Source of the DNA: a virus
DNA length: 64,000 nt
Virus record (IMG/VR): IMGVR_UViG_3300037041_002705
Coordinates: 69,674-133,673 of that record
Reading direction: 5' to 3' (one strand)
Both the position numbers and the translations under genes were made by a program. How positions within the stretch are numbered: the first letter of the stretch is position 1; the number at the start of each line of letters is the position of its first letter. The notes under the pieces are model-generated. The model worked only from the letters and a program-made list of their open reading frames with translations, was not told the origin of the DNA and did not search any database. Shown piece by piece: positions 4,915 through 14,178 of this stretch.

Positions 4915-6735
4915 ATGAATCTACAGCTTTTGAATGAAGCACAGATCATCAATGAGTGGACACCAATGCTCGAGTCAGTAGGCGTCAAGGACGGCTACAA
5001 GAAGAACTGGATGTCAAAGTACTGCCACTATCATCAGATGAACGAAAGCTTCGTAAACGAATCTTTCCAAGGCACAGGCCTTGCACAGCTTATCAATGTT
5101 CCTGGTCAAGGACCAGTAAACATGGGTACAGCAATGACGACACCTGCAAACTTCTACAACACATCGTACCAAGGATCAGGTGATAAGTTCCCATCGCTTC
5201 TTCCGCTTGCAATCCAGGTTGCAGCAAAGACGGTTGGTTTTGACATCGTTTCTGTTATCCCGATGCCAGGTCCAACAGGCATCCTTCCTTACCTTGACTA
5301 CATCTATGCAGGCGGTAAGGTTGATCTTGATGGCACAACAAACTCAAATGCTACACAGCCTTTGATGATCAGCATTGCAGCTACATCGGTCTACGATGAT
5401 CCAACAGTTGGTGACACATACTATGCTGCACCTCTTCAGGCTGCTGCAGACACATCAAGCGCAACAGGTTACTCTGTAACTCTTGCTGCTGACGTTGCTG
5501 CAAAGCTTATCTATGTTGGTAAGTCATTTGTAACAGGTGATCTTATCTTCCGTGTTACATCAACAGGCAACGTTTCTTCAGCTGGTGCTTACACAGCAGG
5601 TGCAGACACGAACACAGTAACGATTGCTCAAGTTTTTGATGTAGGCTCAGGCAACACATTCTCATCTATCCTTGGTGAAGCTAGCACAAACACTGCAAGC
5701 GATGAAGCATATGCTTCAGCAAACGGTACAACGGCTAGCCCATTCCGCCCAGGTTATGTGAGCGCCCTTGAGAACCACATCTATGGCTTCTCAGGTGCAG
5801 GTGCAAATGACACAAACACTTGGAACGGTCCATTCACAGATGGTACAAAGGCATACGATCCAATGAGCAGGGGCACAGGTGAAGAAACCTACCCACGCGC
5901 AATGGGCATCCAGACGTTCACAAAGAACGTACAAGCTGGTACATTCCAGGTAACGATCAGCGTAACAACTGAGCAGATCCAGGACATGAACCGCCAGTTC
6001 GGTATCGATATCCTTGCGATGGCAGAAGGCGTACTTGTTAATGAGGTATCTCAGTCAATCAACAAGCACATCCTTTCACGCGCATTCGCTCTTGGATGGC
6101 AGAATAACTATGATGTTTATCAGACACAAGGCTTCACACTGAACCTTTCGCTTGATCCAACACAGACAGCTTCTGCAACATCGTCATCGTACATCGGCAA
6201 GACAAACGGAGCTCTTACATGGAATAACAACATTCCAGCGTATGCAGATTACGGAAACTTCGAGAACCTCTCGACAGCACAACAGCGCATCGTCAGCAAG
6301 ATCCACGCTGCTTCAAACCTCGTCCACACACGTGGTCGTCGTGGCCCAGCGAACTTTGTTGTAACGAACGCTCAAGTTCTGTCAGCTCTTAACATCGTTA
6401 AGGGATTCTCGCTTGCTCCATTCGATAACACGCTCAACCAGTCAAGCGGTCAGCTGTACCCAGCAGGCACGCTGTTTGGAATGACAGTATATGTTGATCC
6501 AAACATGACATGGAATGACACACGCGTTCTCGTTGGCCGTAAGGGTGCTGACATCGAGCCAGGCATCAAGTTCATGCCTTACCTCATGGCAGAGTCTATC
6601 AGCACAATCGCTGAAGGCACAATGTCACCTAAGATTGCTGTCAAGAGCCGTTACGCTCTTGTTGAGGCTGGCTTCTATCCAGAAGCTCAGTACTATGCAT
6701 TCTGGGTTGAAACACCTGCTGCAGGTATCGTCTAA
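4915..6735 (+). CDS. gp23: Major capsid protein (T4 gp23-like) with Ala/Thr-rich insertion
   Basis: DIVSVIPMPGPTG, TTEQIQDM, NEVSQSINK, RGRRGPANFVV, GIKFMPY, TMSPKIAVKSRYAL are gp23-family motifs; strongly biased codon usage; followed by a terminator. Confidence 0.95.
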   Translation: MNLQLLNEAQIINEWTPMLESVGVKDGYKKNWMSKYCHYHQMNESFVNESFQGTGLAQLINVPGQGPVNMGTAMTTPANFYNTSYQGSGDKFPSLLPLAIQVAAKTVGFDIVSVIPMPGPTGILPYLDYIYAGGKVDLDGTTNSNATQPLMISIAATSVYDDPTVGDTYYAAPLQAAADTSSATGYSVTLAADVAAKLIYVGKSFVTGDLIFRVTSTGNVSSAGAYTAGADTNTVTIAQVFDVGSGNTFSSILGEASTNTASDEAYASANGTTASPFRPGYVSALENHIYGFSGAGANDTNTWNGPFTDGTKAYDPMSRGTGEETYPRAMGIQTFTKNVQAGTFQVTISVTTEQIQDMNRQFGIDILAMAEGVLVNEVSQSINKHILSRAFALGWQNNYDVYQTQGFTLNLSLDPTQTASATSSSYIGKTNGALTWNNNIPAYADYGNFENLSTAQQRIVSKIHAASNLVHTRGRRGPANFVVTNAQVLSALNIVKGFSLAPFDNTLNQSSGQLYPAGTLFGMTVYVDPNMTWNDTRVLVGRKGADIEPGIKFMPYLMAESISTIAEGTMSPKIAVKSRYALVEAGFYPEAQYYAFWVETPAAGIV

Positions 6736-6877: not shown

Positions 6878-7396
6878 TTATGCCCTGTGCTTCATGTAGT
6901 CCCTGAGGGTTGAAAGGTAATCATCTGCAAGTGTCACCTTGCTCTGAATCCAATCTTCTATGGAATCAAGGCCTTCGACCATCTGTATGAGTTCTTCTGC
7001 ATTCTCAATGATGTTCTTCAGTTGGTACTGGATCATCTTTGATTCTGGCTCATGCGCTTCTGGTGCATCCGATCCTGTTGACCTCATAGGAGAGTGTGAA
7101 GTGACATGAACGATCTCTTCTTCTCCTTCTTCTGGGCCAAACTCCATCTCATCTTCTATTTCAAGCTCATCATCCTTTTCACTTAGGAATTGTTCAAATG
7201 TAGCAAGGTTTGACTCCTTGACCTTTGTTGGAAGGCCCTTGTGCTTTGTTGAAGCATACTTTTCTAGCTCCTTTTCAGACATGGACTTTGCAAGGTCCTT
7301 CACCTTTTGGCTGACCTTTGATGCAGGAACTTCACCCCTCTTGAAAGCAAGCGCTAGTCCCATTATCTTTTGTTGTTGTTGTGATCTTGCTGGCAT
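6878..7396 (-). CDS. DUF3008-like domain fused to an acidic linker and a helical domain; probable head-associated protein
   Basis: MPARSQQQQKIMGLALAFKRGE...MSEKELEKYASTKHKGLP is the DUF3008 pattern; C-terminal EDWIQSKVTLADDYL; start placed at MPARS (7396). Confidence 0.75.
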   Translation of the reverse strand: MPARSQQQQKIMGLALAFKRGEVPASKVSQKVKDLAKSMSEKELEKYASTKHKGLPTKVKESNLATFEQFLSEKDDELEIEDEMEFGPEEGEEEIVHVTSHSPMRSTGSDAPEAHEPESKMIQYQLKNIIENAEELIQMVEGLDSIEDWIQSKVTLADDYLSTLRDYMKHRA

Positions 7397-7409
7397 ATGA
7401 AATGTTTTT

Positions 7410-7721
7410 TTATTCAAAAAATCTATCTAGGTCACCTTCGGTGTCAATAGAATTGAGTGATCTTCTCAGATTCCTCTTCTCGTAGTCCATCTCCTTTAGG
7501 ATTTCGTCTCTTTCCTTTAGGAACCTTTCTACCTTCTGTTCTATCTGCTTCCTCTCCTTGCTTTCGATCTCGTGTTTACCGGCCTTATCAAAGAGTTCAA
7601 TCACACTTCTCTGGATCTCCTGAAGCTCAAGCTCAAGCTTATGGACCTTGTTAAGCTCCTTAAGTGCCTTGTACCCCTCATTTGATTCATTTATGCTCTT
7701 GATCTCTAAAAAGGTTTTCAC
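7410..7721 (-). CDS. Hypothetical coiled-coil protein with capsid-targeting-like N-terminus
   Basis: 103-aa ORF starting MKTFLEIKSINES, fills the gap, preceded by the promoter motif on the same strand. Confidence 0.7.
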   Translation of the reverse strand: MKTFLEIKSINESNEGYKALKELNKVHKLELELQEIQRSVIELFDKAGKHEIESKERKQIEQKVERFLKERDEILKEMDYEKRNLRRSLNSIDTEGDLDRFFE

Positions 7722-7735
7722 AAAATAGAGTTTTT

Positions 7736-7744
7736 CTATATATT
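7736..7744 (-). promoter_or_regulatory. Putative late promoter AATATATAG (minus strand)
   Basis: ctatatatt on the + strand is AATATATAG on the minus strand, 14 nt upstream of the GTG at 7721. Confidence 0.6.
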
Positions 7745-7750
7745 AGGCAT

Positions 7751-8182
7751 ATGAAAAAAACCTTTCGAGCCCCGGCAAGCCCATTCATGTACCGCCAGGA
7801 GGTCTACCAGGATGATCCCTGGAAGATGCTATTGATATGCATGATGCTCAACCAGACCTGCTACAAACAGGTTGATAAGGTAAGGGATGCATTCTTTGAT
7901 AGGTTTCCTACGCCGGAGGACCTGCTCGCTGCAACCGATGATGAGATCATACAAATAATACGCCCTCTTGGGTTCTACAACAGAAGAGCCAAACAATGGA
8001 AGAAGTTTTCAAAGGAGTGGCTGTCTTGGGATGGGTCCAATGTCACAGATCTTTCTGGCGTTGGAAAGTATGCGTCAGACTCCTGGAAGATATTTCAAGA
8101 AGGGGTGTACTCCATAACTGTTGAGGATAAGGAGCTGAAGAAATACCTTCAGTGGATAAATGAAAGTGGATACAACAAATAA
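7751..8182 (+). CDS. MBD4-like HhH-GPD DNA glycosylase (stand-alone catalytic domain)
   Basis: SPFMYRQE...DPWKMLLICMMLNQT...PLGFYNRRAK...LSGVGKYASDSWKIF...VEDKELKKYLQW aligns by eye with the MBD4 glycosylase domain, including the catalytic Asp. Confidence 0.88.
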   Translation: MKKTFRAPASPFMYRQEVYQDDPWKMLLICMMLNQTCYKQVDKVRDAFFDRFPTPEDLLAATDDEIIQIIRPLGFYNRRAKQWKKFSKEWLSWDGSNVTDLSGVGKYASDSWKIFQEGVYSITVEDKELKKYLQWINESGYNK

Positions 8183-8212
8183 CAATGCTAAAACAATGGA
8201 GATAGAACAGGC

Positions 8213-8479
8213 ATGAGCATACTATCAGAAGCAGATGGAATAGTAAACAACAGGTCTGAAGAAGCAGATCGCCAGTACGGCCCATTCAGCGAAGGCATGG
8301 AAAGGGCTGCCATGATATTCAATGGAATGACTGGTCTTGATCTTGGAGCAGAACACATGTTCAAGGCACTTGTTGCCCTAAAGCTTTCAAGAGAAAGCTA
8401 CAGGCACAAGAGGGACAACCTTCTTGACGCTGTTGCATACATACAGGGCCTTGAGAACTACATAAATGAGAGGTCGTAA
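8213..8479 (+). CDS. DUF6378-like small all-alpha protein (possible dNTP pyrophosphohydrolase)
   Basis: SILSEADGIVN...RQYG...LVALKLSRE...KRDNLLDAVAY is the DUF6378 pattern as recalled. Confidence 0.7.
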   Translation: MSILSEADGIVNNRSEEADRQYGPFSEGMERAAMIFNGMTGLDLGAEHMFKALVALKLSRESYRHKRDNLLDAVAYIQGLENYINERS

Positions 8480-9558
8480 TGGCGTTGGCGATATATGACA
8501 TCCTAAGCAACCTACGAGGAAAAAGGATTGCAATTGATGATGTCGTAACAACATATAGCCCAAAGAAGGAATCTCATAAGTCTTCTTGGCCATATCTTCT
8601 CAGTTCACAACTAAGAAGCGTCGGACTGATGTCGGATGTTCTGGCAAAGAATGATGACATCAACAGGTATGATGTTTGGTTGATATCGCTTCCAATGGAG
8701 TTCCAAGGAACTTTCAACCTCTTTGGCGGCGCAAATGAAGAGACTGCTTTGAGGATAAAGAGGCTATCCCAGTTCAAGGGTCAGATCTACATACTCAATC
8801 AGGACATGCCAGACATCGGAGCCTTTGTAAATTCAAGGATGAATGCTGCATGCGATGAATGGAAGCAGCTCGATCCAAGCCTCTATACAGATATATCAAA
8901 CAGAATAGAGAGGGTCGATCTCACACTCGACAGCGATACATTCATATATGGCGACAGCCATTCTGTATCGGTCTATGAGCCAGGTGCAAACATAAGCAGG
9001 AACGACGGTCAGACGCTCCATGGATTCCTTAAGAAGAAGGATTCCTTTTTGTATCCTCCTGGAACAAAGAGGGTTGTTCTTTATATGGGAAACATTGATG
9101 TGCGGCACCATATCTTTCGTCAGGAAGATCCCATGGGCTCTCTTCGTGATCTTACAAAGAGGTATGTTGAGTTTGCAAAGGAGCTGAAGGATGTCCATGG
9201 CATGGAGTATGTTGGCCTCGTTGACCTGCTTCCTGTTGAGCACGAGGGAAGAAAGATACCAAAGACCGGTTGGTACAAGGGAACTCCATTCTTTGGAACA
9301 AGGCAACAGAGGGCAGATGCGGTCAAGGAATTCAATAAGCTCCTCAACGAGCTTTCTTATGACTATGACTACGATGTCATCTCTTGGCCAAAGGACTGGT
9401 ATGTATTGGACCCGGACAAGTATGCCGCACAATACATGGAAAGGCCAGGATCCGTTCATCTTTCAAGATCTGCATACCAGTATGACTTTGAGACCGGTAT
9501 AAAGAACAAAAAGATGAGGACATCCGTCCTATTTTTTGATATAACTGGGAGCGTTTAA
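8479..9558 (+). CDS. Fusion of a T4 beta-glucosyltransferase-like N-terminal domain and an SGNH-hydrolase-like domain
   Basis: N-terminal RIAI...YLL...GL.SDVL...DINRYD...FNLFGG...FKGQIYILNQD parallels T4 BGT residues 1-100; C-terminal GDSH, G, GNID and SVHLS resemble SGNH blocks I, II, III and V. Confidence 0.65.
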   Translation: MALAIYDILSNLRGKRIAIDDVVTTYSPKKESHKSSWPYLLSSQLRSVGLMSDVLAKNDDINRYDVWLISLPMEFQGTFNLFGGANEETALRIKRLSQFKGQIYILNQDMPDIGAFVNSRMNAACDEWKQLDPSLYTDISNRIERVDLTLDSDTFIYGDSHSVSVYEPGANISRNDGQTLHGFLKKKDSFLYPPGTKRVVLYMGNIDVRHHIFRQEDPMGSLRDLTKRYVEFAKELKDVHGMEYVGLVDLLPVEHEGRKIPKTGWYKGTPFFGTRQQRADAVKEFNKLLNELSYDYDYDVISWPKDWYVLDPDKYAAQYMERPGSVHLSRSAYQYDFETGIKNKKMRTSVLFFDITGSV

Positions 9559-9560
9559 CA

Positions 9561-10421
9561 GTGTATAAAGAATCTATGACGAAGACCATAAACAGTGAAG
9601 TCCTTTCCCTTCTATCAAAGATGGAAAGGGAAGATTCGCCAAGAGGGCTCAAGGTTGTTGAAGAATATCTGACGACCCTTGAGTTCAATCCTCTCTATCC
9701 AATGATGAACTTTGAAAACAAGGCATTCAATTGGAAGTACTTTGTAGGAGAGCTATGGTGGTACCTTACACAAGAGACCACGATTGACAAGATCAATAAC
9801 TTCTCTAGCTTCTGGAAGACCCTTACCGTTGATGAGAGGATCAACTCAAACTATGGGTATGTGATGTTGTCAAGGCAACACAATCAATTCAAGTGGGCGC
9901 TTGATGCCCTTGTAAGAGATAAGTCAACGAGACAGGCCATAATGGTGTTCAACACGCCGGCATACCAAAAGGAAGGTGTCAAGGACTTTGTATGTACAAT
10001 GTATGTCAATTTCTGGATAAGAGACAACAAGTTGAACATGAAGGTCCAGATGAGATCCAATGACATATTCTATGGCCTTCAGTACGATGCACCGTTCTTC
10101 TCGGTCGTGTATCAATCGATGTACCTTGAGCTGATCAAGAAGTATGAGGATCTAGAGATAGGAACCTATTACCACTGCTCAGATAACTCACACTACTACG
10201 AAAGACACTTTCCTCTTGTTGAGAAGCTTAAGCAAGAACAGCCAAACCCAGAAAGAGAGATTGAAATGAGGATCACACGACCTGTGTTTGATTCCTCTGA
10301 ATCAGGAATTAGTAAGAATGCCATGGAGTTTGTTGATTACATGGAACAGATCCATGACTTCTCGATCTTTAACACATATGATTACATAGAAATATTTCAC
10401 AAATTTTTTGTAGAGGAATAA
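9561..10421 (+). CDS. gp42: Thymidylate-synthase-family dCMP-modifying enzyme (T4 gp42-like dCMP hydroxymethylase)
   Basis: ELWWYL, INSNYG, DKSTRQA, DFVCT (catalytic Cys), MRSNDIFYGLQYD with Asp at the dCMP/dUMP specificity position, SHYYERHF; alternative ATG start at 9576. Confidence 0.85.
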   Translation: MYKESMTKTINSEVLSLLSKMEREDSPRGLKVVEEYLTTLEFNPLYPMMNFENKAFNWKYFVGELWWYLTQETTIDKINNFSSFWKTLTVDERINSNYGYVMLSRQHNQFKWALDALVRDKSTRQAIMVFNTPAYQKEGVKDFVCTMYVNFWIRDNKLNMKVQMRSNDIFYGLQYDAPFFSVVYQSMYLELIKKYEDLEIGTYYHCSDNSHYYERHFPLVEKLKQEQPNPEREIEMRITRPVFDSSESGISKNAMEFVDYMEQIHDFSIFNTYDYIEIFHKFFVEE

Positions 10422-10669
10422 TGGAAGCGACAGAACAAACAACAGAAACTGCGCAGGAGCGCCAACAAACGCCTGCTTATGTCATCGATGATCCAGCAAA
10501 GGCGATCAATGTTCTTGTGAATGCAGCAGAACATGCACAGCGTCTTGGTGCTTACAGCATGCAAGAAGCAAAGATCATCTATGATGCAATTGTATTCTTC
10601 AGGCCTGATAGGTCAGTTGAAGCAGTAAATGCTGCAGCGGCCCAAGAGGAGCAGCAACAGCAGGCTTAA
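10421..10669 (+). CDS. Small hypothetical protein
   Basis: 82-aa ORF whose start overlaps the previous stop (TAATG). Confidence 0.75.
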   Translation: MEATEQTTETAQERQQTPAYVIDDPAKAINVLVNAAEHAQRLGAYSMQEAKIIYDAIVFFRPDRSVEAVNAAAAQEEQQQQA

Positions 10670-10671
10670 CA

Positions 10672-11391
10672 ATGAAAAGGTGCCTTGTCATAGCGACCGT
10701 TGCTGAGGGCGGATTCTACAACGATCTTCCTTTGGGGTCGGATGCTGAGGCATCACGCACTTTTGATCTCATAAAGATAAACTTCAATCCTGTTGGGTTT
10801 TCTAGGGAATCCATAAACCATAGCCATCAACCATGGTACCAAGAAGATGTAGGATTCAAACACCACATCTACAAGAGGCTGATAGAAAAACTGAATCTTC
10901 TTGATAGATATGACTGGATCTGGATGCCTGACTACGATGTCCATCTTGAACAGTCAGAGATTGAGAGGATGTTTAAGATCGCACAGGAATACAACCTGAA
11001 CATCTGTCAGCCTTCTCTTACGCATGATAGCTACCATAGCTTTCCTTTTGTACTGAACGATCCAACAAAGTTCATGAGGTACACAAACTACGTTGAGATC
11101 ATGTGCCCGCTGTTCAAGACAGAAGCGCTGAAGAAGGTCCTTTGGACATTTACCATCACACACTCTGGTTGGGCACAGGATTTTCTTTGGGCAAGGGATC
11201 TCAACTATGAAAGGCTTGCAATCATTGATGATGTACAGGCAAAACATGTCAAACCAGTTGAGAGCCAATATTGGCAGCTTCCAAATGGATTAAATGCTGA
11301 TCAGGAGCTTGACATGGCAATAAAATTGTTTGGTCTTCAAAAGGAAATGTTCTGGCCTAAAGCAATAGGAGGAATAGATCGATGGACATAA
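10672..11391 (+). CDS. DUF707-like putative glycosyltransferase
   Basis: YDWIWMPDYD, ICQPSL, TNYVEIMCPLF, SGWAQD, AIIDDVQAKH follow the DUF707 (GT-A-like) pattern. Confidence 0.75.
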   Translation: MKRCLVIATVAEGGFYNDLPLGSDAEASRTFDLIKINFNPVGFSRESINHSHQPWYQEDVGFKHHIYKRLIEKLNLLDRYDWIWMPDYDVHLEQSEIERMFKIAQEYNLNICQPSLTHDSYHSFPFVLNDPTKFMRYTNYVEIMCPLFKTEALKKVLWTFTITHSGWAQDFLWARDLNYERLAIIDDVQAKHVKPVESQYWQLPNGLNADQELDMAIKLFGLQKEMFWPKAIGGIDRWT

Positions 11392-11693
11392 ACTACAACA
11401 TGGAGGATGACCTTGATTGGACGAATGCAGAGGTCATAGAACTGCACCCAAAGGGATGGAAGCCGGTGAGTGTCAGTTTCATAGATTCATACCCCTTTGT
11501 TTTTTGGAGGCTGAACAACATCCAAAAGAACTTTAGATCAAACTCAGATCTTGTTTCAAGGAAAGGCGTCAATGAATTCTTTTCTGATAGTCTTGCTTCC
11601 ATGAAGCTTCTTGTTATGCATTCATTGGATGGTATGCCAGAAGAAAGAAAGAAATTTTACAAAGAAAATATATTGGAGCTCTTTGATGAATAA
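11382..11693 (+). CDS. Hypothetical protein
   Basis: 103-aa ORF with short overlaps to both neighbours. Confidence 0.65.
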   Translation: MDINYNMEDDLDWTNAEVIELHPKGWKPVSVSFIDSYPFVFWRLNNIQKNFRSNSDLVSRKGVNEFFSDSLASMKLLVMHSLDGMPEERKKFYKENILELFDE

Positions 11694-12285
11694 TCAATAC
11701 CTACAATGGCTCTCAGGTCCAAAAAGGGGAGAAGTAGAGACTGCTGAGATGATGCAGGATGGACAGACGTTTGAGGACGTTGTCATCGTTTCAGGCGGAG
11801 GAAAAATCCCAATGTCAAAGATAGGAAAGGACTTCATAATACTTCCAGCTGCAAATGCAGCATTGAGTCAGATAGACCTCGATGTGATGTATCCGAAGCC
11901 AAACCCAAAGCAGAACAGAAGGGCTGACCAAAAGCAAAGACGGCAGGAGGCGCCTGCTGTGCAGACTGACCATGTAAGCATACTTGGGTTTGATCCTTCC
12001 AACGATTCCCCTTCTGAGCCTCGCGTCCAGGAGAGACAAAGACCTAAGAAGCATTCTAGCTTTGCCACAGACCTTTTAACACGGGCAAAAAAGAATGATA
12101 CAAAGATAACACTCGAACTACAGGTAGAAATGCCATCATCAGCATTCTTCTCGATGATGAATGAGACTTTTGAGGAATCAACGGTAAATGAAGTGATAGA
12201 TATAATCATTGACTCAATTGACCAGGAAGCACTAAGAAATTCAATGAAGCAAAGCATAATCAAATTTTATGGAGGACAGAAGTGA
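11686..12285 (+). CDS. Hypothetical protein
   Basis: ORF-track 11611 start trimmed to ATG 11686 (MNNQYLQW) to avoid a long overlap. Confidence 0.7.
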   Translation: MNNQYLQWLSGPKRGEVETAEMMQDGQTFEDVVIVSGGGKIPMSKIGKDFIILPAANAALSQIDLDVMYPKPNPKQNRRADQKQRRQEAPAVQTDHVSILGFDPSNDSPSEPRVQERQRPKKHSSFATDLLTRAKKNDTKITLELQVEMPSSAFFSMMNETFEESTVNEVIDIIIDSIDQEALRNSMKQSIIKFYGGQK

Positions 12286-13815: not shown

Positions 13816-14178
13816 ATGCTTAGGGACATCTATCTCAGAAATGAAGACGATCCAAAGTATGTGGCAAACAAGATGGAGGAGAATGATAACATCCAAGATC
13901 TTGTTGAGCAGCTAAAGATGCTCTTTGCCACATCACCAGGTGAAGTCATCGCTTATCCATACTACGGTCTGAACCTCGAGGACATGCTGTTTGAGTTTGA
14001 TTTTGATCAGGACCAAATACGTCAAGAGATAGACCGCCAGTACTTTGAGTACATAAAGCCATACTTCCCAGGAATAAACGTTGAAATTGATGTTTATGTT
14101 TCTGAGGGCGAGGTATCAAGGACAATGATCATTGATGTGTACATCAATCAAATTCTAAACTTTCAGGTGATAACATGA
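13816..14178 (+). CDS. gp25: Baseplate wedge/sheath initiator (gp25-like)
   Basis: LKMLFATSPGEVIAYPYYGLNLEDMLFE matches the gp25/GPW T-x-x-GE-x-x-x-x-P-x-x-G motif. Confidence 0.8.
   Translation: MLRDIYLRNEDDPKYVANKMEENDNIQDLVEQLKMLFATSPGEVIAYPYYGLNLEDMLFEFDFDQDQIRQEIDRQYFEYIKPYFPGINVEIDVYVSEGEVSRTMIIDVYINQILNFQVIT

Follow-up and report, generated by a model that had tools for sequence, protein, structure and literature searches.

We analyzed the 3' 64 kb (positions 69,674 to 133,673; the window) of a single 133,673-base virus record, IMGVR_UViG_3300037041_002705, whose completeness is estimated at 42%. The locus of interest is a block of six tightly packed plus-strand open reading frames (ORFs) at window positions 7751 to 11391, termed g1 to g6 here, which we interpret as a probable cytosine-hypermodification cluster of a T4-like freshwater phage. 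The first gene, g1 (7751..8182), encodes a stand-alone MBD4-type HhH-GPD DNA glycosylase domain of 143 amino acids (aa). It is followed by g2 (8213..8479), which codes for an 88-aa DUF6378 protein and is the conserved upstream partner of g3, and by g3 itself (8479..9558), whose 359-aa product is a putative two-domain enzyme with a region weakly resembling the N-terminal domain of T4 beta-glucosyltransferase (BGT) at residues ~1 to 150 and an SGNH fold at residues ~151 to 354. Next come g4 (9561..10421), a thymidylate synthase (TS) homologue of 286 aa with the signature of T4 gp42, the 5-hydroxymethyl-dCMP synthase; g5 (10421..10669), an 82-aa protein outside known families that lies between g4 and g6 in relatives as well; and g6 (10672..11391), a DUF707-like, glycosyltransferase-like protein of 239 aa with a predicted GT-A fold. 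A gap of 30 nt separates g1 from g2, and gaps of 2 nt separate g3 from g4 and g5 from g6; g2 and g3 overlap by 1 nt, as do g4 and g5. A further plus-strand gene, g7 (11382..11693), encodes a 103-aa protein outside known families; its first 10 nt are shared with the end of g6, the gene with which it travels. A preliminary description of this DNA had listed six packed, co-oriented genes with gaps of 30 nt or less, which the ORF list of the window confirmed. Its family labels (MBD4-like for g1, DUF6378 for g2, SGNH for g3, gp42-like for g4, and DUF707-like for g6) were upheld by profile and model matches, and the 82-aa protein was present as described, with no significant family match.

The stretch was found at near identity in metagenome runs of 10 studies, of which one may be its source and among which no RNA data set was listed, and positions 7400 to 11800 were recovered as one contig in an independent lake-water run, with 18 substitutions and no indels. 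Because this independent contig spans the stretch without indels, it is not an assembly artefact. Across three runs we counted 32 in-gene variants, 23 of them synonymous and 9 non-synonymous; the predominance of synonymous changes, together with the independent contig, indicates that the cluster genes are real and under purifying selection. A distant blastn search with the full cluster as query returned no match among 50,697 phage records.

The product of g4 matched the thymidylate synthase family (PF00303, Thymidylat_synt) with an E value of 6.9e-21 (75 bits; the cut-off is 24.3). Its best solved relative was T4 dCMP hydroxymethylase (E 4.5e-19), compared with an E value of 6e-10 for the best true thymidylate synthase. 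By alignment, the catalytic cysteine (C146 in Escherichia coli ThyA, C148 in T4) lies in the motif D-F-V-C-T of g4, and an aspartate of g4 falls opposite T4 D179, the position of ThyA N177, where the canonical TS used as a control has Asn. Residue rules in ThyA numbering are set out in PMC13326640: C146 is catalytic, N177D confers specificity for cytosine, L143D/E goes with products other than methyl, and D169N is diagnostic of 5-hydroxy-dCMP synthases such as RB69 gp48. At the equivalents of L143, C146, D169, and N177, g4 and six metagenomic orthologues aligned as D-C-D-D, the combination also present in T4 gp42 and in gp42 of Aeromonas phage 31, with which g4 shares the surrounding motif too. 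The controls read E-C-N-D for RB69 gp48, N-C-D-D for Xp12 gp59, and L-C-D-N for the canonical TS of a related phage; they followed the rules of PMC13326640 except for Xp12 gp59, which has Asn instead of a bulky hydrophobic residue at L143. Because Xp12 gp59 breaks the L143 rule, our choice of hydroxymethyl over methyl leans on the overall likeness to gp42 as well. We conclude that g4 is best read as a 5-hydroxymethyl-dCMP synthase, with a predicted product that is neither dTMP nor the 5-hydroxy-dCMP of RB69 gp48-type enzymes. The signature residues thereby bear out the initial proposal of a gp42-like maker of C5-modified dCMP. g4 was the only TS-family match in the 133-kb record, in which no canonical thymidylate synthase was found.

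Downstream of g4, the product of g6 matched DUF707 with 26.4 bits (cut-off, 24.1) over 46 residues only. Its structural model (pLDDT 87.9) adopts a GT-A fold, and the top Foldseek matches included TarP (6h1j, E 4.5e-6, TMq 0.51), SpsA (1h7q, E 1.2e-5), and RmlT. Residues P86, D87, and D89, which form a P-D-x-D version of the DxD motif, were invariant in 25 sequences. The modeled GT-A fold and the DxD motif support the glycosyltransferase-like assignment made earlier for g6. Its family has few members, a word-indexed search finding 39 relatives. Sequence hits of g6 on solved designed pentatricopeptide repeat (PPR) proteins were set aside as a repeat artefact, consisting of many stretches that were each non-significant. 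Close g6 orthologues lie two genes after g4 in all four loci with enough flank (L099, L100, L102, and L104); among 26 viral loci with DUF707-like genes, g4, g5, and g7 accompany only the 6 close g6 orthologues. The intervening g5 had no significant family match, its only NCBIfam row having an E value of 0.075; it is kept at 47 to 91% identity in L003, L004, L042, and L099, always between g4 and g6. Library scans gave no family match for g7, which follows g6 in 6/6 loci with close g6 orthologues and travels with g4 to g6 in relatives. Phage GT-A enzymes that have TarP as their top PDB homologue glycosylate 5-hydroxymethylcytosine (5hmC) and, in metaviromes, associate with TS homologues or 5mYOX dioxygenases (bioRxiv 10.1101/2023.12.21.572611). 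By analogy with these enzymes, and from its fold, DxD motif, and adjacency to g4, we infer that g6 adds a sugar to 5hmC in DNA. Since pairs of a TS homologue and a GT-A enzyme that glycosylate 5hmC have already been published, g4 and g6 would belong to a known kind of cluster.

At the other end of the block, g1 matched HhH-GPD (PF00730) with an E value of 2.3e-12, and its best solved relatives were MBD4 glycosylase domains (E 3.1e-23, query residues 3 to 139). It consists of the glycosylase domain alone and lacks the methyl-CpG-binding domain of full-length MBD4. The aspartate after the hairpin (G-x-G-K-Y-x-x-D-S), presumably the catalytic residue, is kept in g1 and in 9/9 true relatives aligned. 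The MBD4-type assignment of the preliminary description was thus borne out. The closest cultured homologues (35 to 38% identity, 83% coverage) belong to Xp12 and its relatives; cultured carriers comprise Xp12, five related Xanthomonas phages, Stenotrophomonas phage AXL_1, and Janthinobacterium phage Donnerlittchen. Both Xp12 and Donnerlittchen have the g1 homologue two genes upstream of a TS homologue, which is followed by genes for dCMP deaminase and dihydrofolate reductase (DHFR). The link between glycosylase and TS homologue therefore recurs in the Xp12 group, and because these siphoviruses are unrelated to the T4-like phage of the window, it arose or was kept twice. The cyanophage S-TIM54 has a g1 relative with no TS homologue nearby. 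MBD4 itself acts on T:G, U:G, and 5-hydroxymethyluracil (5hmU):G mispairs. The context of g1 fits repair of a deaminated modified cytosine, which would be T:G arising from 5-methylcytosine (5mC) or 5hmU:G arising from 5hmC; the DNA of Xp12 carries 5mC (PMC7653180). We found no phage-encoded MBD4-like enzyme among the literature matches listed.

The g3 family is abundant, with 677 proteins at E <=0.001 in a set of 5.8 billion proteins and at least 572 IMG/VR stretches (572 of 600 candidate stretches confirmed). It corresponds to phrog_13881 (E 3e-57) and phrog_17781, both annotated as "unknown function". The sequence match to Lipase_GDSL was weak (E 9.3e-4, under the curated cut-off). In the structural model (pLDDT 89.8), g3 has two alpha/beta domains, and residues 151 to 354 form an SGNH fold, with VIA Z scores against GDSL esterases of 13.2 (2hsj; root mean square deviation [rmsd] 4.2, 181 residues aligned) and 13.4 (8ik1; rmsd 3.5, 173 aligned); for the C-terminal domain, Foldseek gave an E value of 1.1e-5. 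Four residues, Ser160 (in GDSH), Gly177, Asn205 (in GNID), and His327, were invariant in 32 sequences and were assigned to SGNH blocks I, II, III, and V by model position and motif rather than by superposition. In the comparison of samples, 6 of the 9 non-synonymous differences fell in g3: L191S, Y192C, T226A, E291K, and two at the variable C-terminal S358. These changes (window 9050-9154 and 9550-9552) spare every invariant residue.

The N-terminal domain of g3 has its own set of invariant residues (S32, H33, W37, M73, G77, N80, F82, G84, A85, and R120). Aligned by hhalign, the g3 family and T4 BGT gave a probability of 57% and an E value of 1e-4, with g3 residues 41 to 134 placed on BGT residues 26 to 123. 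When the N-domain profile was compared with 170 phage proteins, T4 BGT scored 39 (probability 75%, E 2.5e-5), above PTm1 gp050, a true distant homologue (25), and above all 166 unrelated phage proteins (24 or less). The same kind of comparison with T4 alpha-glucosyltransferase gave nothing (probability 0.3%). We regard the resemblance to the BGT N-terminal domain, seen at the level of sequence profiles, as real but unproven. g3 lacks the C-terminal UDP-glucose-binding Rossmann domain of BGT and has the SGNH fold in that half. Of the proposed BGT-N::SGNH fusion, then, the SGNH part is clear from its fold and invariant blocks, and the BGT-N part amounts to a weak, specific resemblance (hhalign, 57 to 75%).

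Other searches with g3 added little. Searches of PDB sequences with the single sequence and with the family profile gave pectate lyase and uS15 rows at E 0.31 to 0.78, which we treated as noise. Structure searches with the whole model (pdb, pdb_via, pdb_via_wide, and viral) were filled by SGNH-domain matches; a 351-residue viral BFVD entry at rank 22 (E 1.1e-3, rmsd 17.8) was given no weight. An atlas search with residues 1 to 150 returned no usable match. An exhaustive search with the N-domain profile found 222 representatives at E <=0.001. Among the 145 new proteins listed from it, 125 carry an SGNH domain and the other 20 are fragments of 76 to 208 aa; because the exceptions are short fragments, we consider the N-domain and the SGNH domain a fixed unit. 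This search also recovered 13 longer forms of g3, compared with one (P0160) in the word-indexed search.

To place g3 in context, we counted gene co-occurrence in 80 IMG/VR loci with a g3 relative, some of which end at contig ends. A g2 relative, upstream and co-oriented, was present in 74/80, mostly directly before g3, with a median distance of 274 nt from start to start (range, 214 to 1279 nt). g2 matched PF19905 (DUF6378) with an E value of 2.3e-8, had 44 invariant columns in 17 sequences, and retained 61 to 98% identity even where g3 fell to 36 to 40%. The two genes are a conserved pair that is mostly independent of g1, g4, and g6. In the atlas, DUF6378 also occurs in clusters fused to DUF4406, a family that we take to belong with nucleoside 2-deoxyribosyltransferase-like proteins. 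Across the 80 loci, the frequent neighbours of g3 were an Inos-1-P_synth-like protein, encoded immediately downstream (41 loci), an NTP-pyrophosphohydrolase-like protein (41), an FkbM methyltransferase (33), and a 350-aa protein with an HMUDK_hel domain (29); genes for family B DNA polymerase and the ribonucleotide reductase (RNR) small subunit also lie near g3. A second variant of the neighbourhood has a 404-aa protein outside known families (29 loci) and a threonine-dehydratase-like, pyridoxal phosphate (PLP)-dependent enzyme (20 loci). None of the Inos-like, FkbM, and HMUDK_hel genes occurs in the window's own record. Mutual relatedness of g3-neighbour clusters 9 and 10 and the Inos-like cluster 4 was ruled out by hhalign. 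The Inos-like neighbour (for example, L032:1772-2959, 395 aa, phrog_33138) matches myo-inositol-1-phosphate synthase (PF01658, E 1.6e-22), an unexpected type of enzyme for a DNA-modification cluster.

In three architectures, g3 is fused to these neighbours. ORF233c of Aeromonas phage 31 (795 aa) consists of g3 and an HMUDK_hel-like part that is 43% identical (E 2e-103) to the free-standing protein found as its neighbour elsewhere. P0160 joins g3 to the 404-aa protein that is otherwise its neighbour, and P0181, a metagenomic protein of 981 aa, combines an FkbM methyltransferase, HMUDK_hel, and a complete g3 unit. The kinase part of 5-hydroxymethyl-deoxyuridine (5-hmdU) DNA kinases is a P-loop domain. 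Walker A motifs were found in 0/29 free HMUDK_hel-like proteins and in 0/4 fusion proteins. Judged by sequence, the g3 unit is joined to the helical domain that accompanies the kinase in 5-hmdU DNA kinases. Directly upstream of the g3-HMUDK_hel fusion gene in the lytic T4-like Aeromonas phage 31 lies ORF234c (L090:4420-5943), encoding a protein of 507 aa from the sodium:solute symporter family (PF00474, E 7e-53) that could import a modification precursor.

The phages that carry g3 relatives were also examined for their TS homologues. Among five large g2-g3 records, three have a D-C-D-D orthologue of g4 together with a canonical TS, one has a canonical TS only, and one has none. The g4 orthologues of these three records (48 to 53% identity, same signature) lie away from g2-g3. 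In L072 such an orthologue lies no more than 7.5 kb away, and the g4 matches of L072 and L077 are several kb from g3. Cultured carriers of g3 relatives comprised 38 Aeromonas phage, 2 Stenotrophomonas, and 3 Tenacibaculum records, and gene 42 is annotated in many of the Aeromonas phage records. Among five further g3 records is the complete genome of Tenacibaculum phage PTm1, which has a canonical TS and a divergent one reading E-C-N-D. The g3 family thus occurs both with 5hmC-type TS homologues (the window lineage and the Aeromonas phages) and with the 5-hydroxycytosine (5hoC) type (PTm1). The predicted common denominator of g2-g3 carriers is cytosine with a hydroxyl-containing group at C5. 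In PTm1, the divergent homologue (L128; record 123231-123866) bears the 5-hydroxy-dCMP synthase signature, and the distant g3 relative (L091:6977-7996; 24% identity) lies between ribonucleotide reductase genes. Because of this E-C-N-D homologue and the g3 relative, PTm1 DNA may carry a 5-hydroxycytosine-based modification.

Published accounts of these genes were sparse. Among the matches listed, DUF6378 received only passing mentions in phage-genome papers, work joining SGNH, hypermodification, and phage yielded nothing relevant, and work on 5-HMUDK or phage 44RR held nothing on the g3 family. The main texts of PMC13326640, PMC8989533, PMC8670742, and 10.1101/2023.12.21.572611 do not mention SGNH, GDSL, DUF707, or DUF6378; their supplementary tables may name them.

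The cluster sits in the structural region of the genome. A gp23-type major capsid gene (window 4915-6735) lies just upstream, and a gp25-like baseplate wedge gene (13816-14178) lies downstream; because capsid and baseplate genes flank the cluster, its modification genes are placed within the structural-gene region, unlike those of T4. The block begins after a 29-nt divergent gap that follows two minus-strand genes, one of which encodes a DUF3008 protein (window 6878-7417, minus strand; E 4e-16). A DUF3008 relative lies upstream of g2-g3 in 43/80 loci, mostly on the strand of g3, with the opposite strand used in the window. A sigma-70-like promoter match (TTCACA, 16 nt, TATATT; score, 10/12) is located in this gap, just upstream of g1, at 7717..7744 on the plus strand; it is a weak lead, as the scan, which covered sigma-70 promoters only, found 11 such matches in the region against a shuffle expectation of 10.6. 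We saw no convincing plus-strand terminator after g6, and co-directional genes run on into the baseplate genes.

We compared the locus with five known systems. Like the T4 5hmC pathway (gp56 dCTPase, gp42, gp1 kinase, and alpha- and beta-glucosyltransferases), it has a TS homologue with the signature of gp42 and with gp42 as best solved relative, a transferase gene close to that homologue (in T4, b-gt adjoins gene 42), and, in g3, a domain weakly resembling the BGT N-terminal domain. Unlike T4, it has no gp56-like gene, its transferase has a predicted GT-A fold where those of T4 are GT-B, it adds an SGNH enzyme, a DUF6378 protein, and a glycosylase, and it sits between capsid and baseplate genes. 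The metagenomic TS and GT-A clusters described in 10.1101/2023.12.21.572611 likewise combine a TS homologue and a GT-A enzyme that has TarP as its top solved homologue, and in them 5hmC is made before replication and the sugar is then transferred on DNA. They differ in that g6 is DUF707-like, with only a PDxD motif noted where the preprint describes an R...DDD...EDY/F set, and in that the main text of the preprint, which its supplements may extend, names no SGNH, DUF6378, or MBD4 proteins. The earlier statement that the locus differs from T4 in every component but gp42 therefore overstated its novelty, since TS homologue and GT-A 5hmC clusters had been described.

The 5mC clusters of the Xp12 type (glycosylase, hydrolase, TS homologue, dCMP deaminase, and DHFR) share with the window an MBD4-like glycosylase within two genes of a cytosine-specific TS homologue. 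Unlike the window phage, their carriers are siphoviruses of the Bradleyvirinae; the product is 5mC, transferase and g2-g3 are lacking, and DHFR and dCMP deaminase genes are adjacent. The 5-hmdU DNA kinase pathway of thymidine hypermodification also processes a hydroxymethylpyrimidine in DNA after replication, and in other lineages g3 occurs next to, or in fusion with, the helical domain of the Pfam entry based on 5-HMUDK. It differs in that HMUDK_hel occurs here with no Walker A/P-loop, the carriers' TS homologues are of the cytosine type, and the window record lacks HMUDK_hel. The 5hmC carbamoyltransferase found by MetaGPA (PMC8670742) shows that 5hmC can bear a non-sugar group of the O-acyl type, made by an enzyme encoded beside a TS homologue. 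As described there, it belongs to an unrelated, TobZ-like family using ATP and carbamoyl phosphate, and nothing points to the use of carbamoyl phosphate by g3.

What we observed is the order of the genes, their families and folds, the signature residues, and the patterns of co-occurrence and fusion; from these we infer substrates, products, and any modification of virion DNA. On this basis we favour a cytosine-hypermodification cluster of a T4-like phage composed of separable modules (probability, about 0.6). Judging by its four signature residues, g4 would convert dCMP to 5-hydroxymethyl-dCMP before replication. After replication, g6 would transfer a sugar onto the 5-hydroxymethyl group in DNA. 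The widespread g2-g3 pair would form a two-gene module whose target is a hydroxyl-bearing C5 substituent of DNA cytosine. In g3, the N-domain, which distantly resembles the acceptor half of T4 BGT, would present the base, and the SGNH domain (Ser-His, with oxyanion Gly/Asn) would transfer an acyl group or carry out an ester-type reaction, either at the hydroxyl or at a group attached to it. g1 most likely excises the deamination product (5hmU, or T, opposite G), after which base-excision repair would restore the pair; g5 and g7 may be accessory proteins. Retention of the whole cluster in colinear relatives at 47 to 98% protein identity and the mostly synonymous variants between samples speak for this reading. 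A bolder version, which we advance only tentatively and would sooner doubt than accept, is that g2-g3 represents a new class of DNA base-modifying enzyme, in which a base-presenting glucosyltransferase-type domain and an SGNH domain O-acylate 5hmC or 5hoC, either as the final decoration or as an activating leaving group, and that cytosine-replacing phages of two unrelated lineages carry their own MBD4-type glycosylase for the deaminated base. Because the same helical domain is fused to g3 in Aeromonas T4-like phages, the SGNH unit would there stand in the place of the P-loop of the 5-hmdU DNA kinase.

Several observations weigh against the favoured cluster. The L143 rule separates methyl from hydroxymethyl products imperfectly, given the Asn of Xp12 gp59, and the residues alone leave a 5-methyl product possible. 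In g3, SGNH block V lacks the usual Asp (DxxH), the position being a variable Gly, Lys, or Arg; since the Asp three residues before H327 is absent, catalysis would have to rely on a Ser-His dyad or on a different acid. The likeness to BGT-N is weak: hmmsearch of the g3 family profile against all PDB sequences found no match, and PF09198 gave no hit in g3 at E values up to 1. Four fragment g3 records (27 to 41% complete) have no TS homologue. No gene of the cluster resembles a dCTPase (g2 against T4 gp56, E 0.43), and no dNMP kinase was noted in the cluster, although no search was aimed at kinases. Of the g3 loci, g1 and g4 are each found in 7/80 (a g1 count that leaves out three 87- to 92-aa members of blastp cluster 22, in L049, L051, and L055, which are not glycosylase relatives), g5 and g7 each in 3/80, and g6 in 3/80. 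Relatives that have all the genes keep g1 to g7 down to 38 to 62% protein identity (g2, 80%), and they are colinear over the whole capsid-to-baseplate region; for this reason their synteny reflects shared ancestry and not independent association. Finally, because the record is only ~42% complete, complete replacement of cytosine cannot be argued.

These points reshape the account given by the preliminary description, in which the genes made a compact operon and a full pathway: remove dCTP, make modified dCMP, decorate it, and repair its deamination product. The removal of dCTP found no counterpart, as no cluster gene resembles a dCTPase, g2 is unlike gp56, and MazG had no match in the 133-kb record. 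The only candidate dCTP-removing gene in the record is a dUTPase-family gene (G000:C1:17313-17660, minus strand) next to the family B DNA polymerase gene, ~60 kb from the cluster and outside the window; a dCMP-deaminase-family gene (G000:C1:48550-48864, plus strand) also lies outside the window. A full pathway was therefore an overstatement for a cluster with no such gene in a partial record. Instead of one operon of six, the co-occurrence counts show two or three modules, g2-g3 being the frequent pair. The expected co-occurrence in related genomes was seen for g2-g3 and, for the full set, in colinear relatives, while g1, g4, g5, and g6 are rare with g3. What stands is a cytosine-modification cluster with decoration and probable repair; what does not is dCTP removal, the full pathway, and the single six-gene unit.

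Alternatively, only g4, perhaps with g6, may modify DNA, g2-g3 and g1 being unrelated conserved phage genes that share the co-directional block by chance. In that case g3 could be an esterase with, for instance, a host envelope glycan or a small-molecule ester as its target, and g1 could be a glycosylase for general repair or one directed against the host. Such an arrangement would accord with the lack of an adjacent g4 or g6 at most g2-g3 loci, with adjacency inherited among colinear full-cluster relatives, and with the frequency of phage SGNH domains in tail-spike and lipase-type proteins. We nevertheless consider it unlikely, since g3 is fused in three architectures to HMUDK_hel-bearing proteins or usual cluster neighbours, T4 BGT stands out against the N-domain profile, and g3 lies in replication or nucleotide modules of other phages, near RNR, DNA polymerase, and NTP pyrophosphohydrolase genes. 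The recurrence of the link between g1 and a TS homologue in the Xp12 group argues against it too.

The role of g6 could also lie outside DNA. It may glycosylate a polymer of the host surface, as prophage TarP does with wall teichoic acid, and the DNA would then end with plain or g3-modified 5hmC. The best structural matches of g6 are indeed teichoic-acid and polysaccharide transferases (TarP, RmlT, and SpsA), and ~65% of the phage glycosyltransferase contigs mined in 10.1101/2023.12.21.572611 are not adjacent to a base-modification enzyme. In addition, 20/26 viral DUF707-like loci (30 to 43% identity) have no TS homologue within 7 kb, a further point against our favoured cluster, and for that reason the DUF707-like transferase family is not dedicated to DNA. 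Set against this, the close orthologues of g6 are two genes after g4 in every assessable locus, and TarP is the top PDB homologue also of the GT-A enzymes proven to glycosylate 5hmC in the same preprint, so that a surface target for g6 itself seems quite improbable. Least plausible, and in our estimate very improbable, is that the compound formed by g4 is 5-methyl-dCMP, as in Xp12, or some other C5 derivative, with g1 repairing the T:G that results from deamination of 5mC. This would suit the closest cultured homologues of g1, found in the Xp12 group, and the unclean L143 rule. It conflicts with the Asp and surrounding motif that g4 has in common with the gp42 proteins of T4 and Aeromonas phage, with the advantage of ten orders of magnitude of T4 dCMP hydroxymethylase over any TS as a relative of g4, and with the need of the neighbouring transferase for a hydroxyl acceptor. 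No DHFR gene was noticed beside g4, unlike Xp12, the whole record not having been searched for one.

Which restriction, CRISPR, and glycosylase defences a phage can evade depends on the hypermodifications of its DNA, and such modifications are the source of widely used enzymes such as T4 BGT and the 5hmC tools. In the favoured modular cluster, g4 and g6 would add one more member to the known 5hmC glycosylation clusters. What would be new is the abundant g2-g3 module, which cultured Aeromonas T4-like phages carry, which gene fusions connect with hypermodification domains, and which has no described function; if the proposal is true, DNA modification would gain a new chemistry, that of an SGNH enzyme working on a DNA base. 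Also new would be a phage MBD4-type glycosylase beside a cytosine-modifying TS homologue in two lineages, that of the window and the Xp12 group. Because the glycosylase adjoins such a homologue in both, our results suggest that heavy cytosine modification may bring a dedicated repair cost.

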